A stretch of 64,000 nucleotides of DNA from Candidatus Bathyarchaeota archaeon (GTDB lineage Archaea > Thermoproteota > Bathyarchaeia > Bathyarchaeales > Bathycorpusculaceae). The stretch spans positions 128,001 through 192,000 of the forward strand of contig CAWHVC010000003.1 of assembly GCA_963832745.1 (NCBI GenBank), written 5' to 3'. This document shows, in pieces, positions 8,095-55,317 of the stretch; the stretch's first letter is position 1, and each line of letters opens with the position of its first letter. The notes below the pieces were generated by a model, which saw nothing but the letters and a program-made list of their open reading frames with translations, made no database searches and was not told the origin of the DNA. The position numbers and the translations under genes are program-made.

Positions 8095-8097
8095 ACT

Positions 8098-8370
8098 ATG
8101 AGTGAGCAAGAAATTAAAACCCCCAAACCTGCAACCTTAACCTATATCCTTGAAGTATCCCCCAAATGCAACAGGCTACAAGTTGAACAAGAAATGGCTA
8201 TTAGCCTGCGCAAGCTTAACGACTGCAAAGCTGTTGATGCTTACCGTTTTGGTGAACTTCTCGGTACAACCTGTAAGGGCAAAGGCATTACTGACGAAAC
8301 GTTGACGGCTGATTTTACCGTGATTCTTGAAACCGATAAAATTGCAGAGCTTCATGGCTCTAAACTTTAG
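8098..8370 (+). CDS. Viral hypothetical protein
   Basis: ATG 3 nt after the previous stop; operon packing. Confidence 0.65.
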   Translation: MSEQEIKTPKPATLTYILEVSPKCNRLQVEQEMAISLRKLNDCKAVDAYRFGELLGTTCKGKGITDETLTADFTVILETDKIAELHGSKL

Positions 8371-8381
8371 GAGCCTTGCAA

Positions 8382-9263
8382 ATGTCCGAAACACCCGATT
8401 TATTATTCCTTGGGCGAGGCTTAGACGAACCAACCCCCGAACCAACCAACACACGCACAGACAGCGACATGTTAAAAGAAATTTTTGAGCAGTACCCAAC
8501 AGCCGAAGAAGCAAAGAAGCATGTCAACGAGGTTGCAAAAGGAGAAAACAAGTTTAACCGAAAATTCAGCAAACCCAACTGCTACAAGGCAATCAAAAAG
8601 AAATGCAACTTCAAAGGCGATAAACCAAAAGTTTCAAGCCATGAAGCAACCGCAAGCATTCCAGAAGGCGAAGAAATAGAACTCCCCATCGAGCCAGACA
8701 CACCAACACAAACCACTTCAACGCACTTTGAAGATGAAAGCGGCATACCTGAACCTCAACCTTACAACCAACCATTCACAAACTACGAAGCCGTAAAAGC
8801 AGAACTACAACCAATCCAAGAACGAAGCGTCAAAGGCTTAGTCAACAACGTTTTTGACATGATAGGCGTTAAAGGCGAAGGCAAAAACGGCGTAGGTATA
8901 ACCGACCAAGAAAGCAAAGATACAATCACACTTTTGCCCTATATTCTCAAAAAAATAACAAAGGGCGAAATGAACCAAGAAACCTATGAGAACCTAACCA
9001 TTGGTTTACACGTTGGCAACATTGCAACCAAAGCAATAAAAAGCAAAGTTGCAGACCGAACAAACAAGGAACTCAAGAAAATTTTTGCAGAACAACCAAC
9101 AACAACACAGAAAATAACCCCTGCACCACAGCCAGCCCCAGCACCCGAACCAAAGCCAGAGCAGACACCCGAAACCAAACCCGAACAGCCAGCCATAAAC
9201 ATAACAAGCAACGACAGCCGAAACACGCCTTTCCTAAAAGCAATGGAGAAAATGCAACACTAA
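8382..9263 (+). CDS. Viral hypothetical protein with acidic/Pro-rich linkers
   Basis: Long ORF, AGGAG upstream; no recognisable motif. Confidence 0.75.
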   Translation: MSETPDLLFLGRGLDEPTPEPTNTRTDSDMLKEIFEQYPTAEEAKKHVNEVAKGENKFNRKFSKPNCYKAIKKKCNFKGDKPKVSSHEATASIPEGEEIELPIEPDTPTQTTSTHFEDESGIPEPQPYNQPFTNYEAVKAELQPIQERSVKGLVNNVFDMIGVKGEGKNGVGITDQESKDTITLLPYILKKITKGEMNQETYENLTIGLHVGNIATKAIKSKVADRTNKELKKIFAEQPTTTQKITPAPQPAPAPEPKPEQTPETKPEQPAINITSNDSRNTPFLKAMEKMQH

Positions 9264-9276
9264 AGGGGTGACAAGA

Positions 9277-9549
9277 ATGAACTTTGACGATTTAAAAACT
9301 ATCTTAGGCGTTATGAAAACAATTATGCCGCCAGAAAGCCGTGAACAAGTTGATTCATTGCTTAAGCTGGGAGAAATAGCTCAAACAGTGTTGCCCAAAG
9401 ATGCCGTTCAAACAAAGCCATTAATGGAGATGCTTAAGCGCTGTCATGTTGAGCAAACCACTTACAAGGGTAAAAAGTGCGTTGCCATTATCATCGAAAA
9501 AATCCCCCCAGCAATCGAAACAACCGCAATAAAGAAGGCAGACGCATGA
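9277..9549 (+). CDS. Viral hypothetical protein
   Basis: GGGGTGA SD before ATG 9277. Confidence 0.65.
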   Translation: MNFDDLKTILGVMKTIMPPESREQVDSLLKLGEIAQTVLPKDAVQTKPLMEMLKRCHVEQTTYKGKKCVAIIIEKIPPAIETTAIKKADA

Positions 9550-9767
9550 AGCCCTTAAACGCCTCAATAGACATGCAACCATACAATGAAGAAACAATCA
9601 GAACCAACCACGCCAACCTAAAAAGACGCTCCATAGCAGACCTTGAAGCAATCATCGACAGCAACCACGCAAGCCTAACCACAAAAGGTTTAGCCTTCCT
9701 ACTACTGCAAAAAAGAAAACCAGCCGAAAAGCGCAAACTGCCGCCTAAGCAGTTTGTGTGTGTGTGA
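9546..9767 (+). CDS. Viral hypothetical protein
   Basis: ATGA overlap with the previous gene. Confidence 0.5.
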   Translation: MKPLNASIDMQPYNEETIRTNHANLKRRSIADLEAIIDSNHASLTTKGLAFLLLQKRKPAEKRKLPPKQFVCV

Positions 9768-9778
9768 GTGTGTGTATT

Positions 9779-10132
9779 ATGAGTTGTAGCAGTCAACACT
9801 CAACCATTCTTTTCTGCCCCAAATGCCCCAACAAAAAAACACTTACATGCCAGTTCTGCAACGGAACCCAACTCAAAGCCGAACTAATCAAAGAACGCTT
9901 AGAAGTCAAAGCAAAAGACAGAAGGCGCAACTTCAAACAAGAAATAGTACACGTTTTCGTTTTCAACAACGGCTTAGTAACGACCACAGACCAAAAAGAC
10001 GATGTAATGCTTCAATTCACAGGCAAACAAGAAACCAAACTGAAAAGCATCAAACAAAGAATTGACAAACAAAAACCCTGCAAAATAACTTGGCATTCTG
10101 AAAGATGCATGAAAGAAGAGGTTTACGTCTAA
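9779..10132 (+). CDS. Viral Zn-finger protein
   Basis: CPKC...CQFC. Confidence 0.6.
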   Translation: MSCSSQHSTILFCPKCPNKKTLTCQFCNGTQLKAELIKERLEVKAKDRRRNFKQEIVHVFVFNNGLVTTTDQKDDVMLQFTGKQETKLKSIKQRIDKQKPCKITWHSERCMKEEVYV

Positions 10133-10416
10133 TGGTAAAGGTGACGGTTCAAAGAAAATGTGAGTTGGTAATTAACCAACTCATAACAAAAGGCTTCCTA
10201 ATTCAAGTTAACCAAAATCACCTTGATGCCGCAATAATGAGAACGCTTAGAGTGATGGATAAGCGAACAATCAAGAACGTCAAAGATGCAATGGTTTGTT
10301 TGGAATACTTAACGGTAACAGCGCCAGAAGTTTACAAGCTCAATCTTGATGCAATCACAGAAAAAGCGACCCTTGAAGAACTGAAAAGCCGACAGGTGAC
10401 AATCAATGAATGCTGA
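10132..10416 (+). CDS. Viral small winged-helix-like protein
   Basis: GAGG SD before ATG 10132; helix-helix-beta hairpin pattern; aligns ungapped with host ORF 45822-46067. Confidence 0.55.
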   Translation: MVKVTVQRKCELVINQLITKGFLIQVNQNHLDAAIMRTLRVMDKRTIKNVKDAMVCLEYLTVTAPEVYKLNLDAITEKATLEELKSRQVTINEC

Positions 10417-10672
10417 AAGACAAGGAATCTTAGTTAACCGTTTAGACTCTATAGAAAAAGAGTATAAATGGGGTAATAAAGACAAAGCATTCCATTACTT
10501 GACGGAAATCTTGAAAGAAGTCATTAGAGAAGAAAGCCAAGATAACCAACGAATCAGCGATTTAATAAACATAACAAAAGAGCATAACGACAACATCAAC
10601 AATCACAGCCAAGCCTTAACGGAACTACAATCAAAGGAGCATGTTCATAATGGAAAGTCTAAAAATAAATAA
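10406..10672 (+). CDS. Viral hypothetical coiled-coil protein
   Basis: GGTGA SD, overlapping ORF chain. Confidence 0.6.
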   Translation: MNAERQGILVNRLDSIEKEYKWGNKDKAFHYLTEILKEVIREESQDNQRISDLINITKEHNDNINNHSQALTELQSKEHVHNGKSKNK

Positions 10673-10832
10673 GAAAAGGACTTTCCGAGTACGAATAAAC
10701 CGTACAGATACAAGAAAAGGCGAACCCTACCTATCCTTAGTAGCATTAACTGATAGATACATCGAATTAGAGTTTCAAAGTGACGCTAACATACAGCCAG
10801 AACTTAAACCATTAATGGAGAGAGAAAATTGA
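10650..10832 (+). CDS. Viral hypothetical protein
   Basis: AAGGAG upstream of ATG; overlaps the previous ORF. Confidence 0.45.
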   Translation: MESLKINKKRTFRVRINRTDTRKGEPYLSLVALTDRYIELEFQSDANIQPELKPLMEREN

Positions 10833-10974
10833 GTATTATTCTTTCTTTCTCTAACAGTAACACACACTCACACACACAAACTTTAGGTAAGGAAATGAAG
10901 CGGTCTTTAGAGGTTCATTGGAACGGAAAAATTCCTTTGCCTAAAACCGTTAAAACCTTCTTAGGAGCTAAACA

Positions 10975-11610
10975 ATGACAATTTTTCCACGCCTAACCAT
11001 GCCAGCAAACCGAGTTTACAAAGATTGCTGGGCAATCATCGGAATGCGGCAAAGCGGCAAAACAAATTTTCTAAAATGGCTCTTAAGCCAAAGCCACGCA
11101 AGATATACAATCTTTAACACAATCGGCGCAATCAAAGATTGGCAACCACTACACCCCAAAATTCAACGCATCGTCACCCCTAACGGCTGGGAAGATATAC
11201 AAGCATGTTTCAGCAAAACAGCTAAAGAAGTATGGAAGCAAGGCAATCAACAATTCATTATTGACGATATCGCAGTAAGGCACGATGTAAAAGGCAAACT
11301 TAAGCCCTTTTTAACTGATAAGTTTTGGATGCATAGCGAGCTTGCTAAAATAATGAATCAAGGCGGCAACCGAAATATCAGTTTATGGTTAAAGGCTCAA
11401 AGAGTCGCACAAGTTCACAACGACCTATTAAGCAACTGCGACCACCATGTAATCTTTAAGCTCTATTTGCCGCAAGATATTGATTGGTATTCTGGCGTAA
11501 TTCCAAAAACGGTTGTTGAAGCAAGCAAAGACCTTCCCGAACACGAATTTATTTATTACAGGCTGGGCGAGCAACCACAGTTTTGCAAAGCCGTTAAAAG
11601 GATGGTCTAA
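10975..11610 (+). CDS. Genome-packaging ATPase, A32/FtsK-HerA superfamily
   Basis: Walker A GMRQSGKT, Walker B FIIDD, GGNRNISLWLKAQR segment typical of FtsK/HerA-type viral ATPases; ~210 aa, directly upstream of the MCP. Confidence 0.85.
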   Translation: MTIFPRLTMPANRVYKDCWAIIGMRQSGKTNFLKWLLSQSHARYTIFNTIGAIKDWQPLHPKIQRIVTPNGWEDIQACFSKTAKEVWKQGNQQFIIDDIAVRHDVKGKLKPFLTDKFWMHSELAKIMNQGGNRNISLWLKAQRVAQVHNDLLSNCDHHVIFKLYLPQDIDWYSGVIPKTVVEASKDLPEHEFIYYRLGEQPQFCKAVKRMV

Positions 11611-11629
11611 CCGTCAAGACCTGACCGCC

Positions 11630-11665
11630 TTACAGACTTCCAAACCCCTTTTTACAGACTTCCAA
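11630..11665 (+). promoter_or_regulatory. 14-bp direct repeat TTACAGACTTCCAA x2 upstream of the capsid gene TATA box
   Basis: Exact copies at 11630-11643 and 11652-11665; TTTTTAAA at ~11679. Confidence 0.5.
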
Positions 11666-11756
11666 CTTTAAGCGACTCTTTTTAAACATTACGACAACCG
11701 TTCTTAAGAGGGCAAAAAGATACGGTTTACGAAAAGTTTTAGGAGAAAACGTAAAA

Positions 11757-12632
11757 GTGGCATTTAGAAAAATATTTGAAAAATTCTCCATAAAAACCGA
11801 TAAAATAAAAGCAAATACACTAAGCTCAACCACACAAAGCACCGCAGACACAGCCGAAACCGTCACCCTTGAACTCCCCAAAAACAAACTCATTTACGGC
11901 GTTGACCTAAGAGTAACCAAAGACACAGACAGCACACTCGTTGACAACATCAACGAAATAAGAGTATTCCTAAACGGCAACCTCATAATCAAAAAATACG
12001 CTGGCGTTGTCGCAAAAGCAATCGCACTTTTGAACGGTCAAAAATGTTCAACAGGCTTCTACAAAATCTATTTTGTTGACCCACAACTCGGCGGCTCACC
12101 AATCCCAGCAGACGCATTAACCACATTCACTGTGGAAATTGATGTTGCAAAGGCAGGCGCAGGCGTAAAGAACGTTATCACACCAACATTGCTGGAAGGC
12201 TTCAAAGAATCTTTCCCACTGGCACTTAACAAAATCTTAGTTGAAAAATACAGCATTTCCAAAGCATACGGAACCGACACAGGCGAACAAGAATACGGTC
12301 ACGAAAGAACCCAAGACATTCTCGGCTTAATCTACGACTTAGGCGATAACGGCACACGAAGCGACACAGCATTCAGTTACTTAACCCTTGAAGGCAAAAG
12401 CCGCACCGAAGAAATCACCCCATACAGCAAAATGGCATTCAACCAAATTAAAGAACTCAACACCCAAGAAAGCAACGGAAACGCCCTTGCAACTGGAATC
12501 TTTGCTTTAACCTTCCCCGAAGGATTAGCCAGTTACAGATTCACCGAACTAAGAAGCCTCTTGAACATTGCCAGCGCTGGAACCAACTGCACAGCCAAAG
12601 TAATTGAGCGCTTCCTAATCAGCGCCCAATAA
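11757..12632 (+). CDS. Putative double-jelly-roll major capsid protein (PM2 P2/STIV-like)
   Basis: 291 aa, all-beta pattern; TLELP-x4-YGVDLR...INEIRVFLNG...GFYKIYF..P...LTTFTVEID resembles the PM2 P2 N-terminal jelly roll (SIKLP..YEVIDLR..IKNVRVELDG..SFHF..P..LTTCEIKFD, from memory); lies between the ATPase and membrane proteins. Confidence 0.78.
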   Translation: MAFRKIFEKFSIKTDKIKANTLSSTTQSTADTAETVTLELPKNKLIYGVDLRVTKDTDSTLVDNINEIRVFLNGNLIIKKYAGVVAKAIALLNGQKCSTGFYKIYFVDPQLGGSPIPADALTTFTVEIDVAKAGAGVKNVITPTLLEGFKESFPLALNKILVEKYSISKAYGTDTGEQEYGHERTQDILGLIYDLGDNGTRSDTAFSYLTLEGKSRTEEITPYSKMAFNQIKELNTQESNGNALATGIFALTFPEGLASYRFTELRSLLNIASAGTNCTAKVIERFLISAQ

Positions 12633-12648
12633 GGTGAGGTGAAAAAAC

Positions 12649-12882
12649 ATGGCACAACAAGTTAAATCCCAAGTTCAAACCCTAAGCAACCGCCTTTTCA
12701 CTTTAGGCGGCACTCACCGAGCAGGTCAACACAGCCTAACAGACGGCGAAATCGTTTGCGCCGCAATCGCAGGCATAATGATTTTTGCCCCTTCAATGTG
12801 GGCGAAAATGCCACTTGTCGGCAAATACGGAAGCGCAATGATAGCCTTTGCAATCATGGTAATCGCCTTCATAATTTGGTAA
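12649..12882 (+). CDS. Viral membrane protein (2 TM)
   Basis: GGTGAGGTGA SD; two hydrophobic segments. Confidence 0.75.
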   Translation: MAQQVKSQVQTLSNRLFTLGGTHRAGQHSLTDGEIVCAAIAGIMIFAPSMWAKMPLVGKYGSAMIAFAIMVIAFIIW

Positions 12883-12896
12883 GGAGCCCCGAGAAA

Positions 12897-12968
12897 ATGC
12901 CACAAAAAAACATGATTTTGATTGCAGTAGCGGCTTTGCTACTGCTCAGCTTTATGAACTGGCTCTAA
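12897..12968 (+). CDS. Viral small membrane peptide (23 aa)
   Basis: AAGGAG upstream; MPQKNMILIAVAALLLLSFMNWL. Confidence 0.5.
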   Translation: MPQKNMILIAVAALLLLSFMNWL

Positions 12969-13018
12969 GTCAGTTCACCCCACTTTTTTTAGTTAAAATT
13001 TAAGGGAGAACTTCAAAA

Positions 13019-13278
13019 ATGTACAAACTTCAAGCTCCAAAAATAAAATTAAGCCCTTTTTCAACGATTCGAGCCGTTGCAGAAGGGGCAAGCGTAAAGT
13101 CCAAAACTGGAAGGATGAAGTTGCAGACGCAGGCATTATCGCAGGCGTAACCTTTTTCGGCACTATAGGCGGTACGGCGGCAACAGGTGCGGCAAACATT
13201 GAAGGTGCATTGATAGCGGCTGGAAGCATATTCTTTACAATTCTTGCATTGAAACGAGGCTTAGTTAAGGAAGAATAA
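13019..13278 (+). CDS. Viral 2-TM membrane protein requiring a -1 frameshift (or a 1-bp deletion)
   Basis: SD AGGGAG + ATG 13019 (0-frame stop 13148-13150). The -1 frame encodes ...WKDEVADAGIIAGVTFFG...LIAAGSIFFTILALKRGLVKEE* with no ATG/GTG/TTG before the first TM. Slippery heptamer C CCT TTT at 13054-13060. Confidence 0.5.
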
Positions 13279-13280
13279 TC

Positions 13281-13505
13281 ATGGTTGCCGCCGCAGTTTT
13301 AGCCGCCCTTGACATCACAGCCGAGGCATGGAAGCGCTTAACGCCAGAGCAAAAGAAGAAACTTAGAGCGAAATATGACGAGGGCGCAAAAGGATTAGCT
13401 AAAGCATGGGCTAAAACTTGGGCTAAAAATACAAAAAACGCAAAAAAGACCGTTAAAACGGTTTCTAAGACTTTTGCAAAGAAAAAGGGCAAGGGGAAAC
13501 GCTAA
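13281..13505 (+). CDS. Viral small highly basic protein (possible core/DNA-binding)
   Basis: 74 aa, Lys-rich C-terminus. Confidence 0.65.
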   Translation: MVAAAVLAALDITAEAWKRLTPEQKKKLRAKYDEGAKGLAKAWAKTWAKNTKNAKKTVKTVSKTFAKKKGKGKR

Positions 13506-13507
13506 AA

Positions 13508-14302
13508 ATGGTTTGGATTAACCATCAAACCCCCAGCAACTACACAAACCGCCATAGAGATTGGTATCAAGGCGTTTTTCAAGGGGTAGTACACGCTTTT
13601 GCATTGTCAGAAGAATACCGCTATTATCTAAGCATGGAAAAAGAATGCGTAGAAATCAATGCTTGGTTTGCGGCTGACTTCTTAGGCATTCTTAGCTGGC
13701 TGAAAAACTTTTTAATTGACACCAAACGCAAAGCATACCAAAACGGTTACGTTGACGCATACGACCAAGCCGCCCTTTCAGCTTGTAAGGTCATGGAGTC
13801 AACCGAAGGACAAGCCAAAGAGCTTCTTAACAGCATAAACAACGCCTACAACAAAGCCATTTCTGAATCTCAAAAAATGGTTACAAACGTCAGCGACTAC
13901 ATTAACAAGAACATAACCCCCGCCCTAAGTGATGCCCAAACCGCAGTTTCAAACATTAAAACCCAAGTAAACGGCGTTGTAACCCAAATTAACGGCATAA
14001 GCTCACAAGCTCAAAGCGCTCTTAACAACGCAAAAACAGCCTTATCCAACGCCGACAGCGCAGTAAATTACATCAATAACACGATTGTGCCGAGTCTAAA
14101 CAACAAGACAAAGCAGATTGACAGCCTTTTAAGTGATGCACAGAGCAAAGCCAGCCAAATAAGCGTTTTAGGCGTTGACATCGGCAAAGTCAAAGAACGT
14201 TTAGCGGCTTTAGAGAAAGGGCAAACCGTAACCACTGGAAGCACAAGCCCAACCGACAGCATCAAAGACACAATTTCCTCAATTTTTAGACCAAAAAATT
14301 AA
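13508..14302 (+). CDS. Viral coiled-coil structural protein
   Basis: Long Ala/Ser/Asn-rich amphipathic helical repeats. Confidence 0.7.
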   Translation: MVWINHQTPSNYTNRHRDWYQGVFQGVVHAFALSEEYRYYLSMEKECVEINAWFAADFLGILSWLKNFLIDTKRKAYQNGYVDAYDQAALSACKVMESTEGQAKELLNSINNAYNKAISESQKMVTNVSDYINKNITPALSDAQTAVSNIKTQVNGVVTQINGISSQAQSALNNAKTALSNADSAVNYINNTIVPSLNNKTKQIDSLLSDAQSKASQISVLGVDIGKVKERLAALEKGQTVTTGSTSPTDSIKDTISSIFRPKN

Positions 14303-14323
14303 CTTTTTCGGAGAGAAAAAAAA

Positions 14324-14482
14324 TTGTTTGACCTACAAAACTTTAACATTGAAACTTTGAAAAATTTAGCAAACCAACACCAAAAAGAGTTAATCATAGT
14401 GGCTCTTGTGGGTGCGGCTTTGCTGTTAGTTTGTATTGCCAAAAAGCAAAAAGTATCACTTAGCGAGGTAGCCAACGCATGA
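14324..14482 (+). CDS. Viral small membrane protein (52 aa)
   Basis: Hand-translated; GGAG + TTG; LIIVALVGAALLLVCIA TM; ATGA overlap with the next gene. Confidence 0.55.
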   Translation: MFDLQNFNIETLKNLANQHQKELIIVALVGAALLLVCIAKKQKVSLSEVANA

Positions 14483-15060
14483 CCGTAATTGACAGCTTCT
14501 TTGATTGGCTTGAAGCCATAGTCAAGCCTAAGCCAGCAACAACTCAGCCCACAGAGACAGGTTTTGAACTGCAACCCGTCATAGAACAAACCGTCATAGC
14601 ACCCAACCCAACCCCAGCCGAAACAATACAGCCATTAACACCAATCACGCCAGCCGACCCCGAACCAACAACCCAACCCAGCACACCCTTTAACAGCTTC
14701 ACTTACAACGATAGCCCAACAGTGACCCCAACGGCAACCCAGCAAACGGCAACACCCCCAGCAGACGCAACACAAGCGCCAGTAGGCAAAGGAATTTGGC
14801 AAATAAACTTGAACTATGGCTTCATAAGGAAAGTCAACGAGCCAGAGGACTATCACTTAGAATATGGCGGCGCTAACGGTACACGCTTTGATATTGGCAC
14901 TGTCGGAATTTACGCAGATGGCATTAACAAAGCTGGCGTTCTTAGCAAAGCTGACATGATAGAGCATCAAGCCAAAGGCGGCAACATTGCAAAAGCTGAA
15001 TCTGGCTGGAATAAGGCGGCAATAGCTGACGCAGAAACCTTAAGGAGGGTTGTTCAATGA
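14479..15060 (+). CDS. Viral Pro/Thr-rich protein
   Basis: GAGGT SD; PT-rich linker + C-terminal globular part. Confidence 0.7.
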   Translation: MTVIDSFFDWLEAIVKPKPATTQPTETGFELQPVIEQTVIAPNPTPAETIQPLTPITPADPEPTTQPSTPFNSFTYNDSPTVTPTATQQTATPPADATQAPVGKGIWQINLNYGFIRKVNEPEDYHLEYGGANGTRFDIGTVGIYADGINKAGVLSKADMIEHQAKGGNIAKAESGWNKAAIADAETLRRVVQ

Positions 15061-15806
15061 ACGACACAATAAACGTAACCGTCACAACAACACAAACAGT
15101 CACGCCAATTCAAGGCAAAAAGTACATGATGGTAACCGTTGGCGCTGTTGACGTTCTTGTTAAGACTTGCAAACAGCAAAGTGTTAATGAGGATGGCGAG
15201 TTTTTCAAGCTCAAAGCAAACGGCGTTTACACCCTAAAAGCTGACAACGGCGTTTTCTTCTACGTTATCTGCAAAACTGCCGCTGGCTCAAGTACCCTTG
15301 AGATTGTTGCAAGCAATGACGAACTCTTTTTTCTAAACGACCCCTCGTCATTAGCACAAATTACGCCATACATCTTTAAAGGCACTGGCGGCGCTGTTCC
15401 TGACAACACAAGCCTATACGATGCCCTCACATGGAAACTTCAAAATCCCCCCGCATACATAAATCAAGAAAATCCAGTTCAAAATCAGTATTATACGGTT
15501 CTTGATAGTACTGTGCCAACTCGTATTAAGCAAATGGGTTTTCGTGTTGACACAACAGGCGAAACCGTACTTTGTCGAGTAACTATCGATGGTTTTGTTG
15601 TTTCTGCCGCTCCAAGAGTTGCTACAGCGGGGTCAATGTATTGGTGCTATTTTCAACCTGACTTAGATGGCAACGCTGTTTACAATAGCAGTACACTACC
15701 TACCCCAAACTGGCTTGAAGGCAAGACATTGAAAGTTGAAATTTGCAAAACGACAAATGCGGGCAATGGAAATATTCGTTGTGTTGTAGCTTACGAGACA
15801 AGGTGA
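15057..15806 (+). CDS. Viral beta-rich structural protein (possible penton/spike)
   Basis: Two beta-sandwich-like regions; late-operon position. Confidence 0.55.
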   Translation: MNDTINVTVTTTQTVTPIQGKKYMMVTVGAVDVLVKTCKQQSVNEDGEFFKLKANGVYTLKADNGVFFYVICKTAAGSSTLEIVASNDELFFLNDPSSLAQITPYIFKGTGGAVPDNTSLYDALTWKLQNPPAYINQENPVQNQYYTVLDSTVPTRIKQMGFRVDTTGETVLCRVTIDGFVVSAAPRVATAGSMYWCYFQPDLDGNAVYNSSTLPTPNWLEGKTLKVEICKTTNAGNGNIRCVVAYETR

Positions 15807-15810
15807 TTTT

Positions 15811-16224
15811 TTGAAGCCTTCTTTTTCTTTTTTGGCGGCTATCGGCTGTTTTGGCTTTGCAGTTTTGCTTTTTACACGCATGGACTACCTTGTTAACAAT
15901 ACGCTCTATAAACATGGCTTAAAATTCAGTGATGAATGGTACAGCGAGTACAGTTTGTTGTATGCGTTGCTGTTTCAGTTGACGATTGCTTTGATTTATT
16001 TGTGGACTCGTAGCTGGAAACTTTGCTTAGTTCTTGAAGCCTTTGTCTTGTCAAGCTGTCAGGACTTTGTTTATTTTGGTCTTTGGGAAGGCGGCAAGTT
16101 TCCGTCAGGGGATTGGGATTGGATGCCGTTGTTTAAGACTTTTGGGCATTGGACTACTAAAGACCAGTTAGCGTTTAGTGGTTTGGCGTTGGCTGGGGCT
16201 GGCGTTGTGGCGAAGGTGGCTTAA
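15811..16224 (+). CDS. Viral multi-TM membrane protein
   Basis: AGGTGA SD; 3-4 hydrophobic segments. Confidence 0.7.
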   Translation: MKPSFSFLAAIGCFGFAVLLFTRMDYLVNNTLYKHGLKFSDEWYSEYSLLYALLFQLTIALIYLWTRSWKLCLVLEAFVLSSCQDFVYFGLWEGGKFPSGDWDWMPLFKTFGHWTTKDQLAFSGLALAGAGVVAKVA

Positions 16225-16226
16225 AA

Positions 16227-16874
16227 GTGGGTTTGTTTGATTCCTTTTTTTCACCGAATCCCCCGACTCCAAGCGGCAAGAGTTGCACGGGTTGTTTTTG
16301 GAGTGGCTATCAAGGCAAGATTTGCCGAAAACCCGTTAAGCCTGCACCGATTTTAAACGTTGGACATGCTGATTTGTGCGTTAATTATACGACTACGCCG
16401 CCCACTTTTGACAGCACAACTTACACGGCTGTTGAAGCGGTTAAGACGGCGGTTGATGAAAACAAGATAGCTTTATTGGCAAAACCGACTTTTAGCACGG
16501 TGACGGCGAGTGATAACCTTTTGGTTAGTAGTGATGCTGAAATCGTTACGACTTTGACGGTGTACACTAAGTTTAAGGAGTTTAGGGTACAGGTGAACGG
16601 CAAATACAGGGTAACGTTTGATTTGACAATTGTTGGTACGTATGGCACTTACAGTGCTTTTGGACAGGTTTGGAAAAATGGCGCTCCTTATGGAGTTGAA
16701 GCTACAAATAATTCGGGAAATTGGCATACTCGGAGTGATGATTTGGATTTTGTTGTTGGCGATTTGGTGCAGTTGTACGGCAAAGTCTATGTTAGCGGTA
16801 TTGAGTGTCACTTGAAGAATTTTAGGTTGTACGGTTCTATTTCTGGCAATGTTGCCTTTGAAAACCCTGTTTAA
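16227..16874 (+). CDS. Viral putative spike/receptor-binding protein
   Basis: N-terminal Cys cluster, C-terminal beta-sandwich (GKYRVTF...KNG...GDLVQLY). Confidence 0.55.
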   Translation: MGLFDSFFSPNPPTPSGKSCTGCFWSGYQGKICRKPVKPAPILNVGHADLCVNYTTTPPTFDSTTYTAVEAVKTAVDENKIALLAKPTFSTVTASDNLLVSSDAEIVTTLTVYTKFKEFRVQVNGKYRVTFDLTIVGTYGTYSAFGQVWKNGAPYGVEATNNSGNWHTRSDDLDFVVGDLVQLYGKVYVSGIECHLKNFRLYGSISGNVAFENPV

Positions 16875-16876
16875 AC

Positions 16877-17059
16877 CTATGTTTCACCCAGCTTTTTTAT
16901 TTTTGTCTCAACGGATGGTTTGCCTTCGTTGGCACACCAGCGATATAGTTTAGAAATGCTGTCTATTCCGATTTTTTCAAGTATTTTCTTGTTCTCGTTG
17001 AATAAATTTGTAAATTCTTTGTAGTCTTTGGGGGGGATGCGTATTGTTGTTGCTGGCAT
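16877..17059 (-). CDS. Viral ribbon-helix-helix-like repressor candidate
   Basis: MPATTIRIP beta-strand, GIDSISKL helix; only clear minus-strand gene of the element, divergent from the integrase. Confidence 0.6.
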   Translation of the reverse strand: MPATTIRIPPKDYKEFTNLFNENKKILEKIGIDSISKLYRWCANEGKPSVETKIKKLGET

Positions 17060-17248
17060 GGTTGCTTTGATAGGTTGTAAATGGTTTTATTGTTTTTGAT
17101 ATGGTTGTAAACGTTTGTGATTTTTTGATTACATTAATATACGTGGCTGGTTTTTTTCATTTTAACTGTAGTCTCTTAGGTTGGAACTATCAGTTCTAAC
17201 ACACCGTTTAAGAACAGCAAAAAGGTTTGATGGCTGAAAACAATCCTT

Positions 17249-17320
17249 AGGAAAGTAGGCAACGCCGCCCCAAAAAGACATTTGGTGACATCAGATTGAT
17301 GCGGTCTTGCCTACTCCCCT
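17249..17320 (-). ncRNA. Putative viral antisense sRNA (hairpin with guide loop)
   Basis: 14-bp terminal stem that pairs fully only on the minus strand (two G-U pairs) plus a 4-bp inner stem. Upstream minus-strand BRE/TATA GAGAAAGGCTTAATA (17343-17357). Loop is complementary to 7394-7411 and 17427-17444. Confidence 0.6.
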
Positions 17321-17440
17321 TACTCATTTTCTTTTGAAGTCTTATTAAGCCTTTCTCCAAAACTCGAGGTATTCTCAAAACGGTTAAGGGTTAACGTTTA
17401 TATGCTAACTTGCCTCTTCCTATGGCTTGGTGACATCGGA

Positions 17441-18898
17441 TTGAGTAAATTAAGAGGTACTGTAAAGTTTAAAGAAGATTTGTTGGCGATTTTTCGTCAT
17501 TTAAAGAAAAATCCCCAAGAACCCGACCCTATTAAAAGCTGGGCTGTCGTACCCTTTGAAGGCAAAATCAACGGAAAAACACAGAGAATTGACAACAAAC
17601 GAGCATTAGCCGCCTATTTTGGCATTAGCCACATGAAGCTTTATGACATTCTAAAAAAGAACCCTCATGGAGTAGTTGATGCTTCAAAGCCTAAAACAGT
17701 TCAACCCGAAAGCGCAAGGCAGTATCAAGAAACCATTATCCACACTGAAATCATTAAACGCTATGCCAAATACATTAACCCACAAACAGGCTTACTAACA
17801 GGACACGGTGCATCTGTTGACCGCATGGGCGAAAACCTTTTTTTCATGTTCAAACGTGACCCAGCGCTTTTAACAAAGGAGCAGTATGTGCAGGCTGTTC
17901 GTGACCCCCGATTTGCAAAGGCTGACGGCTCAATAAAAGTGGAACAACTCAGCAAAATTAGACTTGTTTTAGATACTGCCGCCCAACTAAAAGACGTTCC
18001 CATAAGTGGCTACAAATTTAGAGATGGTGACGAATTTTATGAACGAGGCTTACAGATTAAAGGCGGCAAATTGGAACTCTACTTACAAGAGCATGAACTA
18101 ATACAATTTGTCAAAAACATTGACTGTATAGACACTTTAGTAATGCACAGACTCGGCTTAGAAGCTGGAAGCCGTATTTCAAGCGCAATGTTGGTTAGCC
18201 GCGAAAATATCTTGTTTGACCTAAACACCATTGTGATGTATGAACCAAAAGTCAAGAAAAAAGAAAAACGCATCTTTGCCACTGAAACACTCGATTTTAT
18301 TAACATGTACATCAGAGAATGCCCTAAGCCAACGCCACAAAACCCCCGAAACATCGGTATAATCGGAAAACTCTTTGAAAGGCACAAGAGCGCAGGCAAA
18401 AATTATCAAAGCTATAATAGTAGCATTAGACGGGCTGGCTTTAATGCTGGACTATGGGGCTACCAGACCGACGCAAAAGGAAAACCAATGTTTACTGAAA
18501 AAACAGTTAGAAAACGAGGCGGCGGCGGTGCATTAGGCAAAGAAAAACACTACTTAACAGAAGGTAAGTTGACAACAAGCCACACAACAATGAAGCACAC
18601 CTTTGTAAGCCTTTCAAGTCAACACGGTTTTAGCATTGATGATTGTGCAAGACAAACAGGAACCAAAGCAAGCACCCTTACAGACTTCTATCACGGCGGC
18701 GGCGAAAGTACACTTTTAGCGCTTATTTTGGGGAAAAGAACTTTCGTGCCTTGGCATGTGTGGATTAGGGAAACTATAGACCCCCTTTATCGAAAACAAT
18801 ATACTGATTTGAAGAGACAGGGCAAATGGACTATTTCGAGCGAGCAACAACGCATTGAAGAAAAGACGCTTAGCGATAAAATCGAGGATGAAGCCTAA
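17441..18898 (+). CDS. Tyrosine recombinase/integrase, divergent
   Basis: Box I LGLEAGSRISS, EPKVKK, box II SHTTMKHTF...QTG...TLTDFY; TTG start at 17441 after GGTGA SD. Confidence 0.8.
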   Translation: MSKLRGTVKFKEDLLAIFRHLKKNPQEPDPIKSWAVVPFEGKINGKTQRIDNKRALAAYFGISHMKLYDILKKNPHGVVDASKPKTVQPESARQYQETIIHTEIIKRYAKYINPQTGLLTGHGASVDRMGENLFFMFKRDPALLTKEQYVQAVRDPRFAKADGSIKVEQLSKIRLVLDTAAQLKDVPISGYKFRDGDEFYERGLQIKGGKLELYLQEHELIQFVKNIDCIDTLVMHRLGLEAGSRISSAMLVSRENILFDLNTIVMYEPKVKKKEKRIFATETLDFINMYIRECPKPTPQNPRNIGIIGKLFERHKSAGKNYQSYNSSIRRAGFNAGLWGYQTDAKGKPMFTEKTVRKRGGGGALGKEKHYLTEGKLTTSHTTMKHTFVSLSSQHGFSIDDCARQTGTKASTLTDFYHGGGESTLLALILGKRTFVPWHVWIRETIDPLYRKQYTDLKRQGKWTISSEQQRIEEKTLSDKIEDEA

Positions 18899-19027
18899 TG
18901 GCTGATTCCTTTTTGACTGTTGAAGATGGCGAGGTTATGGTTAACATTAACTGCCGTTTTCATCATGCCCACATTTCCTTAAAGCAATACAACGCAATTA
19001 AGAAATTGCGGTTAGCGCCAAGCCGAG

Positions 19028-49638: not shown

Positions 49639-50343
49639 ATGGCTATACAAACGCTTAAAAAATATTCAAACGTGATATGGTTTGTTATTATAGCAGTGGT
49701 TTTTTCGCTTTTCTTGTACTGGATAAGCGTGGCTGTTTACGGGTTTGGCGACTGGCTTTTTCTTTCAATCAACATAGTATTTTTTGCGGTTTTTTTGGCG
49801 TTTATTCAGTTCCGGCGAAAAATAGCTCGTTTGCCGGCAAGCGCCACTTTAGCGTTTATTGTTGCCTTGTATTTTGAAATGTACGGTGTTCCTTTAACTG
49901 CGTACTTTTTCACGTGGGCGCTTGGTTACGATAGAGTCTACATGCTAGAGTACCTACTCACAGGCGTAATTGGCGTTGAAGCATTCACGATTCTTTTTCA
50001 CTGGTTTATTTTGCCCGTTTCAAACATCCTCATGCTTGCGGGGCTGCTGTTGATTGTGTTTGGCTGGAGAAAAATTCATCAAGCCAAAGGCACACATATG
50101 GTAAAAGACGGTATCTACCATTACATCCGTCACCCACAATATCTGGGCTTCCTAATGCTAACGCTAGGTATGAACATCCAATACACAACCATTCCGACAC
50201 TGTTGATGTGGCCACTCCTCATTATCCTGTACTACCGACTGGCAAGGCAGGAAGAACAGGAAGTTTCAGAAAAGTTTGGGCAAGAGTACGAACAATACAA
50301 AAAGGAAACACCCATGTTTTTCCCACATTTAAGAAAAAAATGA
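49639..50343 (+). CDS. Isoprenylcysteine carboxyl methyltransferase-family membrane protein
   Basis: EMYGVPLT, GIY.YIRHPQY, EE...FG.EY..Y. Confidence 0.85.
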   Translation: MAIQTLKKYSNVIWFVIIAVVFSLFLYWISVAVYGFGDWLFLSINIVFFAVFLAFIQFRRKIARLPASATLAFIVALYFEMYGVPLTAYFFTWALGYDRVYMLEYLLTGVIGVEAFTILFHWFILPVSNILMLAGLLLIVFGWRKIHQAKGTHMVKDGIYHYIRHPQYLGFLMLTLGMNIQYTTIPTLLMWPLLIILYYRLARQEEQEVSEKFGQEYEQYKKETPMFFPHLRKK

Positions 50344-50942
50344 GGAAACTAACAGCAGTCACTCTAGCATTCACTGCAGTATTTATTATTGTAATGTCAA
50401 GCTCTTTCGCCAGCGCAAGCATCAACACGCTACACATCGACTTAGACATCGCAAAATCCACCATCACCCCTTATGAAAAACAGCAAATCACCACCATAGT
50501 CAACGAAAAAGGCGTAGGAATCGTATTTGTTATTCAGCCAGCACAAGGCCCAGCTTGGACAGACTTCTTAAATGAACATCCAGACTTGAGAGCTTTGTGG
50601 GTTCTTGCTCCTGATGACGTAAAAGCCCAAATACAAGCAGCAGTTGGAAACAAAATTGTTTCTTACGCAATTGTCAACTTTGACGACGCAGGATCTAAAA
50701 CGTTGAATTTTGAAACTGACTTTACAGGCATTAACGGGGCACCAAGCACAGGTTTAATAGGAGAATACAAAGTGTTCTTTGCATACGTGTCATTTGAGCC
50801 ATGGTATTGCATGGAAACAGGTTTTGCTTGTGGCGCATGGAACGTTGTCCCTGAAGTGCCGCTTGGAACAGCAATGGCGGCTGTCTCAATGATTGCAGCA
50901 GTAGGCTTCTTAAAGTATAAAAACAAAATTTCTAAGCTTTAA
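50340..50942 (+). CDS. Secreted protein with PEF-CTERM-like sorting signal
   Basis: Signal peptide; VVPEVP + TM + basic tail. Confidence 0.7.
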   Translation: MRKLTAVTLAFTAVFIIVMSSSFASASINTLHIDLDIAKSTITPYEKQQITTIVNEKGVGIVFVIQPAQGPAWTDFLNEHPDLRALWVLAPDDVKAQIQAAVGNKIVSYAIVNFDDAGSKTLNFETDFTGINGAPSTGLIGEYKVFFAYVSFEPWYCMETGFACGAWNVVPEVPLGTAMAAVSMIAAVGFLKYKNKISKL

Positions 50943-51085
50943 TTTTTTTATTTATTTTTTATTTTTTAGGCATAATTTTGTTTTTAGGTAATTTTATTGT
51001 GTATTTGTTTTCTACAATTTGTTTTATTAGACATGTTTTGGAAAGTTTTTTTAAAGGCTTTCTTTGAAAGTTGTTTGGTGGTTAG

Positions 51086-51583
51086 TTGAGAGGCAAGCAG
51101 TGGTCAGTTGAAGAAGAACGGCAATTGCGTGAACTTGTTAAGGAAGGCAAAAGTTTGGAGGAAATTTCACAGAATATGGGTAAGTCTGTTCTTTCTGTGA
51201 AAGGTAAATTGCATAATTTGGGTTTAAATAAGTTACGAGTTGGTCGGAGTTTCTGGGGTACAGGTGCAACAACAACTGTTGCAACAACTACTTCTTCTGA
51301 AGCTTCGGCTTCGGTTAATGGGGCGGTTTTTGGTGGTATTGCTTTAAAATTGAAGCAAAAGTTGTCTACTCTTGAAGAAAATGCTAAGCGTCTTGATGCA
51401 GCAAATGCTTTGTTAACAGATCCAAATGTTAATCTTAGTCGTACTGATGTGCAAAGACTGCATGCTGCTGTTTTGGGTACTAAGACTTATCATGAAGTTT
51501 ATGTGAAGTATGTGCAGTATCGCAAGTTAGAGGAAGAGGTTGCGGAGTTGAAACGGAAGCTTGCGGAAGAAAAAGATCAATAA
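51086..51583 (+). CDS. HTH (Myb-like) + coiled-coil protein, candidate terminase small subunit
   Basis: WSVEEERQL...SLEEISQNMGKS..SV; overlaps the TerL start. Confidence 0.65.
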   Translation: MRGKQWSVEEERQLRELVKEGKSLEEISQNMGKSVLSVKGKLHNLGLNKLRVGRSFWGTGATTTVATTTSSEASASVNGAVFGGIALKLKQKLSTLEENAKRLDAANALLTDPNVNLSRTDVQRLHAAVLGTKTYHEVYVKYVQYRKLEEEVAELKRKLAEEKDQ

Positions 51584-53021
51584 ATCTGGGGTTGATCGTC
51601 GTAGTTTGCGTGTTGATGAGTTGATGGCGCAATGGAAGGGGCTTAGGGATGATTACCGTGCTCATCATGAAGCCAGAGTTGCTAAGGTTGAAGCAGCACG
51701 CGGTAATGCAGCATTGTTTTTTAGGGCGATTTGTCGTTTGGAGCTTTTTTGGTACCAGCTTGAGCTTGCTGAATTGTATAAGCAGAACCAGTTTATTGCT
51801 GTTAGGTGGCCAAGACAGACTGGTAAAAGCACTTTTATTGGTGGGCTGCTTTTGCAGGATGCTTATGAGAATGCTGATTTAAATATTGGTTTTGTTGGTC
51901 CTAGTTGGCGCCAGACTAAGCTGAATCTTCGTAGAATTGCAGGTTTTTGCCGCAATTTGCCTTCGGGAAGCTGTCATGTACAAAAAACCAGGCTAAGCTT
52001 TAGTAACGGCTCAGTTATAGAGGCTTTTCCTAACAACCCTGAAACCATTAGGGGCAATACTTTTCACAGGTTATGGTGGGATGAAACTAACTTTACAGCT
52101 GGCGACGAGAACTTGTATGATGCTATCTTGTTTACTTTAGGCACAACAAACGGAAAGTTAGTTGCTAGCAGTACTCCGTTTAGTAGTGATTCGCTGTTTT
52201 GGAAAATGTGTAATCACAAAAAATTTCAAGATTTTGCTCGTCATCATTTTAGTTGGGAGAGGGCTTTGGTGCCTAATGGTCCGTTATCTTCTGAGATGAT
52301 TAAGCGAATACAGCTTCAGTTTGGTGATGACCAGCAGCGTTGGCGTCGTGAAATGGAGGCTGAATGGGCTGAGGATGAGGATGTTTGGTTGCCCCAGAGC
52401 CTGATTGTATCTTGTGTGGGTACCGAAAAAACTTGCGGTAACGATCTTGAAATGTACAATCCAGAAACACGTTGCAGCGGAGAGTTTTTTGCTGGTTTAG
52501 ATCTTGCACAGACTAAAGACTACTGCGTTTTTAGTGTCGTCGAGCGGTTAAATGATAAGCTTTTTTTGAGGCATTTGAAGATTTTTTCTCAACCTACCAA
52601 GTACGCGCATGTTTTAGGTTACATTAAGATGCTACAGGATCGCTGGAATGGTTTTGAGAAAATCAGGGTCGATTTCACCAGGGAGGGACCAAGCTTTATT
52701 GCCGATATGGAGACTGCAGGCATCGAAAACGCAGAAGGCGTAAACTTTAGCCTTCCACGTAAAAGTGAAATGGCTAGCTTGTTAAAACAGCGTATGATGA
52801 ATCAGCGTTTCTATTATCCCCTGTTTGGCTGGGAGAAGCCCTACAAATGTGATGTCTGTAGTGAGTTAAATATTGAAAGATATCAGCTACGAAATGACGG
52901 CAATATTAGCTTTGGTCACCCCAATGGAACGCATGATGACGTATTTTGGAGTATAGCTTTGGCAGTGTATGGAACTGCTGAAATGCAACCAGAACCATTC
53001 TTAGCCGTGATACCCCGATAA
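51561..53021 (+). CDS. Terminase large subunit (ATPase + RNase H-like nuclease)
   Basis: LFWYQ adenine-binding motif, RQTGKST Walker A, WWDE Walker B, SSTP coupling motif, GLDLA / RVD / HDD nuclease acidic residues. Confidence 0.9.
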   Translation: MRKKKINKSGVDRRSLRVDELMAQWKGLRDDYRAHHEARVAKVEAARGNAALFFRAICRLELFWYQLELAELYKQNQFIAVRWPRQTGKSTFIGGLLLQDAYENADLNIGFVGPSWRQTKLNLRRIAGFCRNLPSGSCHVQKTRLSFSNGSVIEAFPNNPETIRGNTFHRLWWDETNFTAGDENLYDAILFTLGTTNGKLVASSTPFSSDSLFWKMCNHKKFQDFARHHFSWERALVPNGPLSSEMIKRIQLQFGDDQQRWRREMEAEWAEDEDVWLPQSLIVSCVGTEKTCGNDLEMYNPETRCSGEFFAGLDLAQTKDYCVFSVVERLNDKLFLRHLKIFSQPTKYAHVLGYIKMLQDRWNGFEKIRVDFTREGPSFIADMETAGIENAEGVNFSLPRKSEMASLLKQRMMNQRFYYPLFGWEKPYKCDVCSELNIERYQLRNDGNISFGHPNGTHDDVFWSIALAVYGTAEMQPEPFLAVIPR

Positions 53022-53073
53022 AATCTATAAAAACATGCTGTCTGTTCAGTTGGCGATTCCTTATTGTTAATTG

Positions 53074-53152
53074 TGGTGCGGTCGCCGGGATTTGAACCCG
53101 GGATCATTAGCTTGGAAGGCTAAAGTCCTAAACCAGACTAGACGACAACCGC
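53074..53152 (-). tRNA. tRNA-Gly(UCC), CCA encoded, no intron
   Basis: Acceptor GCGGTTG/CGACCGC, anticodon arm TTAGC-CTTCCAA-GCTAA, T-loop GGTTCAAATCC. Confidence 0.96.
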
Positions 53153-53274: not shown

Positions 53275-55317
53275 TTAGTTAAGAGGGGTTGGTCTCATTT
53301 TTTTGTGTTTAAGAATTAAAACACAACCCGCAATTAATACAGCAGCCACAATAATTGCAGCGTAGATTGCCCAGTTTTCAATGGATTCATTCGGTTGGTT
53401 AATGGCTGAATTAATGTTAACAATTACTTGGTGTGAACTGTGATGGTAGGTGAAATGTAAAAGCCAAGAGTCTTCAACTGGCAACACATTGCAGTCCAAG
53501 TTGTTATTGTCCAAATAAACTTGGATGCTTGAAGCGTCCTGCACCAAGGCTTTAGCTACATAAACGTCTGCAAACCCAAAAGTTCCTGATTCTCCAGTTA
53601 CTGTGAAGCTTAATTCTTTGCTTGTAGAGTTAAAACTAAGACTTGAAACCGTAGAGTTTGAGGCTACTGAGAAAATGTTCTGTTGGTCATACTGTGTAAC
53701 AGCCAAATTTACTATCGTGCTTGTTTCTGGATAGGTATTGTCGCCTTCAAAAACGGCTTTCAATAGATAGTTTCCTGTAACAGAGGGTAGCCAACTGACT
53801 GAAAACGAACCGTCAGAAGCGGTGTTGACAAGGGTAAGGTCTTGATAGGATTTTCCACCGTTAACACTGTAGGACAATAAAATTGGTTGATTTGCTAATG
53901 CAGTTTCATTCTGGACCAGATTTCCTTTTATTGCTACATTAAAGCCTGAATAAGAAGTTGAGCTTACGCAGGAAACAAATAGCGTTGTAGAATTCGGATT
54001 AGCTATTGGTGTAGGTGTTGGAGTTTGAGTTGGTGCGGGGGTGGGGCTGGTGTTTGGTTTAGGTGTTGGGGTTGGGGTTTCGGTTGGGTTTGGTATGGGG
54101 GTTGGGCTGACATTTGGAGTAGTTATTGGAGTTTGAGAAGGATTTGGAGAGGGAGCTGGAGTGGGTGAAGGAGAAGGTGAGGGAGTAGGGATTGGTGTTG
54201 GAACTGGAGAAGGAACATATGTTGATGAAGGAAAAGGCGTGAGGCCACCAATACCTGCGGAAGTACTTACATATGGAGGTGCTTGCATGTTAGAGGACGT
54301 TAAAAAGGGCAGATAAATCACTGGACCAAAAGTGTAATTTTCAAAGTGAATTGTCTTGTTTATTTCCTGTTCATTATTTGTTCCCCACCAGTTACCAGTG
54401 GCATCAAGTTCTATTGAACGATTAGAGAATACATTGTAAAAGTTGCCGTAAATATTGTTATCAAAGATTGTGGGGGTAGAGTTTGTCTGTGGCGGATATA
54501 GGGAGTTATACAGAAAAGAAATTCCCTGCATGTTTTCTGTTATGAAATTGTTTTTGATAGTTGCGTTGGAACCTCTCATGATTCTGATGCCAAATTCGCT
54601 ACCTCTAATGAAATTGCCTTGAATAAGTGATAGGTCGGTTCCGCCGCTTTGAAGGTTTATTCCAGTGGCACCATAAATTTGGCTGTTTAAATTATTAATA
54701 ATGTTGTTAGTAATGATTGCCTTGATTGTTGTTTCTGAATTAACAGTAACTCCTATTCCAACACCGCCAGTGAAAACATTGTTTGAAATTATTGGAGCAC
54801 ACTGTCCTCCATTGGGCATGGAAAATAGTGAAATGTAAACGCTTGTTAGGTCGCAATTAGCTATTTTTAATGAGACACCTTCTACTTGGATTAGAGCCAT
54901 TTTGATGTTACAGTTTTCCAGAATTGTTCCTGTTTGCGTTTGTTCATTCCAATCTGTGTTGAAGCCGCCAAATTTGATGAAATTTATATTTGACCCGTAA
55001 GTATTGCCTAAACCGATAATCCGAATGGGATCGCTAACAGTTCCTACAGCAGAAAAGACACCCTCAACGTCGAAACAATAACCGTTAAGATTAACTGTTG
55101 TTCCAGGCTCAACAGTAAGTTTAACTCCTTGACTTAGAACTACGTTGCCTGCGAAGGTATAGGGGCTGCCTGTTTTAGTCCATACAGCATCTTGGCTGAT
55201 AACTCCATTAACGTTTGTTGTAGTTTGTGCTTCCACGTTTCTTGAATAAAGGGTAACAAAACCAATGGTTGAAGAAATTAGAAGGAACAACAAGAGAACG
55301 GCAGGCAATTTTTTCAT
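53275..55317 (-). CDS. Secreted beta-helix surface protein with PT-rich linker and TM anchor
   Basis: [16 protein letters not shown], long PS/PT repeats, C-terminal TM. Confidence 0.85.

Follow-up and report, generated by a model that had tools for sequence, protein, structure and literature searches.

The DNA analysed here (the window) is a stretch of 64,000 nucleotides from a Candidatus Bathyarchaeota archaeon, G000:C3:128001-192000 in an assembly of 3.02 Mb that is 99% complete. Immediately beside a tRNA gene it carries two overlapping genes, one for a helix-turn-helix (HTH)/coiled-coil protein and one for a terminase large subunit (TerL). Comparison with relatives gives good support to the view that these genes belong to a virus-derived, free-standing HTH-TerL module of long standing that is inherited in several alleles, is subject to purifying selection and does not depend on capsid genes in cis. 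The HTH/coiled-coil partner gene (window positions 51086-51583, + strand) encodes 165 residues from a TTG start and was assigned by open reading frame (ORF) calling, weak HTH profile matches and a structural model. The intact TerL gene (51561-53021, + strand, 486 residues) was assigned by ORF calling, Pfam, PHROG and alignment of homologues. A TTG start is favoured for TerL, since the alignment with homologues extends 5' of its first internal ATG; with this start the two ORFs share 23 nt. A 52 nt spacer (53022-53073), read directly from the sequence, separates the TerL stop from the 3' end of a complete tRNA-Gly(UCC) gene located by ARAGORN (53074-53152, - strand), which is convergent with TerL. 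This arrangement, including the overlap and the distance to the tRNA, is as described in an earlier interpretation of the locus made without database searches (the sequence-only reading).

Upstream of the partner gene lies a T-rich spacer of 143 nt (50943-51085, + strand), also read directly. It contains a TTTAAA-like box and GGTGG immediately 5' of the TTG start and is likely to be the promoter and ribosome-binding region of the HTH gene. The sequence-only reading had called the pair T-rich and unlike its neighbours. This does not hold for G+C content, which is ordinary (0.41-0.425 for the pair and ~0.42 around it), but does hold for strand skew, which sets the two genes apart (GC skew +0.33 and +0.18, AT skew -0.11 and -0.03), and for the upstream spacer.

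TerL matched the Pfam family Terminase_6N (PF03237) over residues 84-282 with an E value of 3.2e-10, over the cut-off, and PHROG_2, 'terminase large subunit', over residues 60-471 (E = 1.7e-34). In an alignment of 16 homologues the invariant positions included G88-K89, D174-E175 and S204-T205-P206, which we take to be the Walker A, Walker B and coupling motifs, respectively, as well as D314, D371 and H458-D459-D460, presumably the acidic residues of the nuclease. The PF03237 match and the first three motifs define an N-terminal ATPase domain. A C-terminal nuclease region is predicted from the PHROG_2 alignment, which reaches residue 471, and from the invariance of D314, D371 and D459-D460. Both sets of motifs had been read as retained in the window copy, and the alignment agrees.

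The partner gave weak, sub-threshold matches to Myb, GcrA and HTH_38 profiles (residues 3-76) and matched PHROG_323 with an E value of 2.9e-8. Its AlphaFold model, with a mean predicted local distance difference test score (pLDDT) of 77, comprises a three-helix HTH (residues 8-45), a disordered Ser/Thr-rich linker (52-86) and a long C-terminal helix (119-164). A fold search of the whole model against the PDB returned nothing at E <= 0.001; the HTH part alone resembles the GcrA DNA-binding domain and the Tc3 HTH. The partner gene lies directly 5' of TerL both in proviruses and in the cassettes described below, the position of a small terminase subunit (TerS) gene, and the architecture of the protein is likewise that of a TerS. 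The partner is therefore treated here as a putative TerS on the basis of gene position and architecture.

Four HTH-TerL pairs are present in the genome, three of them intact, together with fragments. Besides the window copy these are ownB (C3:49347-51204) and ownC (C3:444909-446751), both intact, and a pair on C4 (C4:141747-143602) in which TerL is broken. A search of the genome with the PF03237 profile returned only the four pairs and one sub-threshold match. Identity between these paralogues is 58-71% for the TerLs and 25-55% for the HTH partners. The term 'orphan' used in the sequence-only reading is thus apt in that the pair has no capsid genes, but not in the sense of a single copy; its question whether the pair is multicopy is answered by the same count.

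Profile searches of the genome for the HK97 capsid (PF05065) and the portal (PF04860) gave no match, nor did family-specific searches for the capsid, portal and tail genes of the cognate provirus family described below. No integrase homologue was found near the window locus. The 3' end of tRNA-Gly(UCC) had one match in the window, the gene itself, and none elsewhere in the genome. The window had earlier been reported to hold no portal, HK97 capsid, tail, integrase or duplicated tRNA 3' end; the searches agree, and for capsid, portal and tail the negative result extends to the whole genome. Of the marks of an integrated provirus (integrase, att repeats and a structural module), none was found at the window locus. 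The capsid protein of the provirus family was matched in 23 of 41 genomes of the genus, and three genomes that are 92-99% complete (G000, G010 and G022) have a full-length TerL and no capsid match.

Decayed provirus remnants occur in the source genome at C5:453-459 kb, C2:65-72 kb, C1:402-412 kb and C2:230-232 kb. The first (C5:453100-458900, beside tRNA-Arg(TCG)) is a heavily deleted provirus of the same family. It retains pieces of three provirus genes, those for the regulator, the cement protein and the head-region protein (81% identity), together with a 43-residue C-terminal fragment of TerL, and carries an inserted gene for a large secreted protein. Homologues of the provirus tyrosine integrase (PF00589) were found at eight places in the genome, seven of them within a few kb of a tRNA gene (examples are C1:143k, C1:671k, C2:87-88k, C3:403k, C5:11k, C5:84k and C5:451k), which suggests that the genome harbours many integrated elements.

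The origin of the pair was traced through its homologues. At nine loci in relatives HTH-TerL stands at the end of a conserved head-tail provirus block. The block starts with a regulator, a head-region protein of 430-530 residues and a cement/decoration protein (PF09956), and contains an HK97-type capsid protein (PF05065, E = 1.1e-7; several PHROG major-head families), a portal-like protein weakly matching PF04860 and tail genes, among them a tail tube (PF18906) and a YQBQ-like tail protein. The tail genes are followed by two small proteins, p137 and p80, the HTH gene, TerL and an ABC-ATPase/GNAT gene. At a distance of 4-6 kb on the downstream side of TerL there is a tyrosine integrase (PF00589), which in one provirus abuts an antisense tRNA-Leu. 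The gene after TerL (L036:10974-12413 and homologues) encodes an ABC-type ATPase fused to a GNAT acetyltransferase, with weak matches to the PADLOC mad3 and mad8 models; with this assignment its candidacy as a portal was ruled out.

All of the 80 IMG/VR loci with a related TerL have provirus-type neighbours, and none is a bare pair. Homologues 60-75% identical to the window copy occur in complete head-tail proviruses, which makes the viral origin of the pair plain. Tailed proviruses published for Bathyarchaeia include BATPV1 (PMC11705971) and a 46.8 kb Bathy-6 provirus (PMC11697101), and other viruses of the class have been described (PMC10848311). Locus L221 lies on the named contig with BATPV1; its TerL shares 66% identity with the window TerL and sits in the block tail, p137, p80, HTH, TerL, ABC/GNAT; L221 is probably BATPV1.

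Two complete proviruses have additional copies of the partner gene at their left border, ~19-27 kb upstream of the intact HTH-TerL. In G040 (L070:2131-2510) the 3' part of the HTH gene and the first ~40 TerL codons are repeated, and in G014 (L072:9536-9676) an HTH fragment is present. These copies could be relics of an older tandem element or of integration beside a resident cassette. Integration of proviruses into resident cassettes was considered and set aside, border copies being present in two of seven.

The other homologues were classed by their neighbours. Of 36 intact TerL loci in relatives, classed on ~10 kb of flank per side, 23 consist of HTH and TerL only (bare pairs, or cassettes), nine are proviral, two are partial and two belong to another provirus type. 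Among 80 loci from named Bathyarchaeota genomes, classed on 6 kb of flank, 48 have no provirus-family neighbour, 30 have one and two were classed otherwise; some of these rows had short flanks, and the larger tree below sets such rows apart as unclassable. To the question whether the unit always comprises two genes, which the sequence-only reading had posed, the answer is that it very often has exactly two. The upstream neighbours of bare pairs are host genes, encoding UbiD, aconitase X, glycosyltransferases, an MFS transporter and an exosortase-like protein. An integrase had been suspected among neighbours of 360-450 residues beside the cassettes; these proved to be the same host proteins.

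A tree of the 36 rows calculated with IQ-TREE contained a 15-row clade made up entirely of cassettes and placed the window copy in a five-row cassette clade nested among provirus TerLs. In a FastTree tree of 168 distinct TerLs two large clades were without a provirus copy. Clade I (29 rows, 24 bare and five unclassable because of short flanks; support 100) holds ownB and ownC, and clade II (17 rows, 14 bare and three unclassable; support 99) holds the window copy and is sister to five provirus rows. This tree also has a few small groups of cassettes outside the two clades. Sixteen different upstream contexts were counted in clade I and five in clade II. From the clades and the varied contexts it is concluded that the two-gene state originated from proviruses a few times, after which it persisted and spread as such. 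A TerL phylogeny had been among the checks proposed earlier, and both trees yielded clades free of provirus copies.

Linkage to tRNA genes, another of these checks, was recurrent in the cassettes. When scored by BLAST with tRNA sequences, 15 of 70 cassette rows (11 distinct) and 0 of 36 provirus rows had a tRNA or tRNA 3' fragment no more than 220 nt beyond the TerL stop. ARAGORN alone had located a tRNA in two of 24 short loci, and the partial copies were found later by BLAST. Thirteen of the 15 linked tRNAs are antisense, as in the window, and they include tRNA-Pro(GGG) in two different syntenic groups and the tRNA-Gly(UCC) of the window locus; the cases in the other orientation come from two loci, one with a nearly complete tRNA-Ala and one with a 3' fragment of tRNA-Lys. 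The layout of TerL followed by a convergent tRNA equals the right end of the provirus minus the segment from ABC/GNAT to the integrase. Between near-identical cassettes, similarity ended ~33-57 nt after the TerL stop in many pairs.

Partial 3' copies of tRNA-Gly(UCC) are present in several relatives and mark this gene as an integration hotspot in the genus. One region (G008:C6:268446-293525) contains one full tRNA-Gly(UCC) and partial 3' copies ~5 kb and 25 kb away, an array that reads as a signature of tandem integrations; similar partial copies were seen in G007, G013, G016, G045, G051 and G056. A search for the empty tRNA-Gly(UCC) site gave no candidate, the flanks in 30 relatives being unlike those of the window save for weak PEMT paralogue matches.

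Selection was assessed from the ratio of nonsynonymous to synonymous divergence (dN/dS, omega). By the Nei-Gojobori (NG86) method, TerL omega was 0.048-0.106 for cassette pairs versus 0.036-0.075 for provirus pairs. Interspecies synteny was found for ownB with L039 and L066, ownC with L046, L035 with L054 and L045 with L051, and also between broken pairs, the C4 copy and a broken copy in G002. At ownC/L046 dS was 0.547 for both cassette genes and 0.31-1.73 for 14 flanking host genes, while omega was 0.048 for TerL, 0.108 for HTH and 0.02-0.20 for the host genes. These values show that the pair is inherited together with the chromosome and has been under constraint since it became bare; the same holds for ownB/L039 and L045/L051. 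The HTH partner was less constrained than TerL at every syntenic pair (omega 0.11-0.37). The window TerL keeps 143 of the 144 columns that are invariant in ten relatives, despite 28% differing sites versus the nearest aligned relative. The dN/dS comparison that had been asked for thus indicates strong purifying selection on cassette TerLs, and the syntenic loci agree.

These results bear on one rival explanation, ordinary debris, according to which a provirus at tRNA-Gly(UCC) decayed and two functionless packaging genes were by chance the last to remain intact. Such decay would fit the plainly proviral family, the position at a tRNA 3' end matching the right end of a provirus, the many integrations at tRNA-Gly(UCC) in the genus, the other decayed remnants in the genome and the broken state of some cassettes; moreover, the own-branch dN/dS of the window copy is not measurable, its dS being saturated. 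Against it, the same two boundaries recur at 23 of 36 and 48 of 80 loci, two clades are without a provirus copy, syntenic inheritance is accompanied by omega values of 0.05-0.11 over dS of 0.5-1.7, the window TerL has lost only one of its 144 invariant columns, and true debris in this genome is fragmentary. We regard debris as improbable, and for the family as a whole it is strongly disfavoured.

The sequence-only reading had preferred a two-gene domesticated or selfish module to prophage debris, and this preference is borne out by the recurrence of the pairs, their copy number, their repeated siting beside tRNAs, the purifying selection and the provirus-free clades. It had named as contrary evidence nearest homologues in complete head-tail proviruses at this tRNA together with relaxed selection on this copy. 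Homologues do occur in complete proviruses, but the copies closest to the window pair are themselves bare, none of them lies at this tRNA, and selection has not been relaxed.

Inheritance is not simply vertical at every locus. At L035/L054 the cassette dS is 1.6 and that of the flanks 0.1-0.56, which is against simple vertical descent, and the left breakpoint lies ~190 nt inside the HTH gene; the pattern shows that incoming alleles replaced the resident one. TerL 3' fragments lie downstream of an intact TerL in five loci and fit serial replacement. An autonomous selfish mobile element, a genomic parasite in which the RNase-H-like nuclease of TerL cuts the target and the HTH protein picks the site, would account for this replacement of alleles at one locus and for the downstream fragments, as it would for several copies per genome and for the presence of one clade's members in five (clade II) or 16 (clade I) upstream contexts. 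Neither terminal inverted nor direct repeats bounding an element were found around the window copy. Its DNA similarity to related cassettes (~70%) is confined between the HTH start and the TerL stop, and no conserved noncoding flanks shared with these relatives were found. Near-identical copies at separate sites in one genome were not found, the sole near-identical pair, L047/L061, sharing its flanks. The 58-71% identity of the paralogues in the source genome implies that any movement was ancient or rare, and the adjacency to tRNAs points to the integrases of larger elements as the movers. An autonomous element is accordingly judged quite unlikely.

A TerL match was obtained in 32 of 41 genomes of the genus and order, often with several copies per genome and many fragments, and in 34 of 41 genomes of the genus in the comparison that also covered the capsid protein. 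No match was found in seven of the 41 genus genomes, some of which are 96-97% complete. All named relatives with homologues are labelled Candidatus Bathyarchaeota or Bathyarchaeia, except for one Methanocella record. This distribution is relevant to a third rival, namely that the cell has recruited the pair as an enzyme for tasks that have nothing to do with viruses, such as an ATP-dependent nuclease or translocase in recombination, repair or chromosome processing. Vertical inheritance with host-like omega, occurrence without capsid genes and intact ATPase and nuclease motifs would suit such an enzyme. The patchy distribution, the variable copy number with broken copies, the replacement of alleles from virus-like sources and the siting beside tRNA integration points and variable surface-protein islands would not; they fit accessory, conflict-related genes better than housekeeping genes, and we assign a cellular role a low probability.

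The explanation that we favour, with somewhat better than even confidence, is that the pair is a kept stand-alone terminase module of provirus origin which acts in trans on related viruses. Its source is the packaging genes of head-tail proviruses that integrate at tRNAs in Bathyarchaeia. Of such an integration the window copy keeps HTH-TerL alone, at the end nearest the tRNA; the segment on the integrase side and all upstream provirus genes are gone. The pair would still be an ATP-driven, DNA-cutting and translocating holoenzyme, with its target chosen by the HTH partner, which evolves fast. As the pair lacks a capsid, it would act in trans during infection by, or induction of, a related virus. 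Its most likely function, as we infer it from the comparative data, is to act on the capsids or DNA of related viruses and so to hijack or block their packaging; the inference draws on the intact motifs, the faster-evolving partner, the turnover of alleles and the position by integration hotspots and variable DNA. If packaging is hijacked, chromosomal or island DNA beside the cassette would be loaded into virus capsids in a manner resembling lateral transduction. If the module serves interference or defence, it would cut and compete for viral DNA and compete for portals. A more specific version, to which we would give rather less than an even chance, is a free-standing, multi-allelic terminase system that Bathyarchaeia would have domesticated from their own temperate tailed viruses. 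Each pair, sited by a tRNA or integration hotspot, would recognize DNA through the rapidly evolving partner and engage procapsids supplied by a related virus, leading either to aborted packaging of that virus (immunity) or to one-directional packaging of the adjacent variable island.

Several points weigh against this interpretation. The partner had no Pfam or PHROG match to TerS and no match to a solved small-terminase fold. In PADLOC-DB 2.0 neither the HTH partner nor the TerL of two cassettes matched a defence model. The class of bare pairs was judged on 6 to ~10 kb of flank, and the sample of IMG/VR and metagenome-assembled genomes is biased, so that unsampled proviruses could fall inside the bare-pair clades. 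Retention is not absolute, as the broken C4 TerL, its syntenic counterpart in G002 and some other copies show. For the window TerL dS is saturated against every relative, and its constraint is read from the column count. Given the allele replacement at L035/L054, part of the constraint measured for the family could have been imported from functional viruses.

The genes on either side of the window cassette (50208-50942 and 53275-55317) both resemble surface proteins with a C-terminal hydrophobic anchor; the tail of the neighbour of 244 residues is presumably PEF/PGF-CTERM-like. Downstream of other cassettes, genes for large secreted PQQ-propeller/Ig-like proteins and MazE-like genes recur. Elsewhere in the window (7400-19000) a series of small ORFs lies on one strand, and AT skew is positive. 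A protein of 291 residues in this region (11757-12632) gave a weak, sub-threshold match to the N-domain of PM2-type coat proteins (PF18628, E = 0.0024), and a P-loop protein of 211 residues (10975-11610) is encoded just 5' of it. These features give weak indications of the double jelly-roll (DJR) provirus proposed in the sequence-only reading, and its view that the HTH-TerL pair belongs to a different viral lineage from that provirus is plausible.

Terminases are treated as virus hallmark genes and are used as such by viral-detection pipelines. In the genomes sampled here more than half of the TerL genes lie outside proviruses, as conserved and selected two-gene units, and a lone TerL is accordingly not evidence of a provirus in Bathyarchaeia. 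The family offers a clean natural case of a packaging motor exapted without a capsid, and a testable way to study virus-host conflict or gene transfer in an archaeal class that is very abundant and nearly uncultured. No paper on orphan or stand-alone terminase pairs was found in a literature search, although the supplements of papers may list such genes. If the specific version given above is true, terminase immunity or capsid-less helper-dependent transduction would be a type of system not described in archaea or bacteria.

Compared with the Caudoviricetes terminase of the tailed proviruses of Bathyarchaeia, the window TerL is homologous with all catalytic motifs, and the position of the HTH partner and its overlap with TerL are alike. 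Unlike these proviruses, the window pair has no capsid, portal, tail, ABC/GNAT or integrase gene at its locus, the genome as a whole likewise lacks an ABC/GNAT gene of this kind, and bare pairs are inherited with the chromosome. Gene transfer agents of the RcGTA type occur in genomes that also retain their capsid, portal and tail genes. They resemble the present family in having a domesticated terminase that is maintained by the host under purifying selection; however, no head-tail structural cluster was found in the source genome, which makes the suggestion of a gene transfer agent part unlikely.

Lateral transduction requires a complete inducible prophage. It resembles the hijacking model in that a terminase acts on adjacent chromosomal DNA in one direction, the side downstream of TerL being the variable one here; the difference is that all structural parts would have to come from a helper. 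Lateral transduction starts from the pac sites of prophages in situ; a paper on the subject is PMC12829572. In the window pair, as in phage satellites, chromosomal packaging genes would serve to exploit or block helper capsids, and the genes sit at integration sites. Satellites with their own packaging specificity include those using the TerS of Staphylococcus aureus pathogenicity islands and phage-inducible chromosomal islands (SaPI/PICI), capsid-forming PICIs and PLE. Integrase, replication and regulation genes, together with defined ends, are the rule in known satellites; these were not found here, and the genes upstream of related cassettes are host genes. We know of no satellite made of TerS and TerL alone. 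If the pair does interfere with or hijack packaging, satellite-like or defence-like strategies would extend to a minimal two-gene form and to Archaea.

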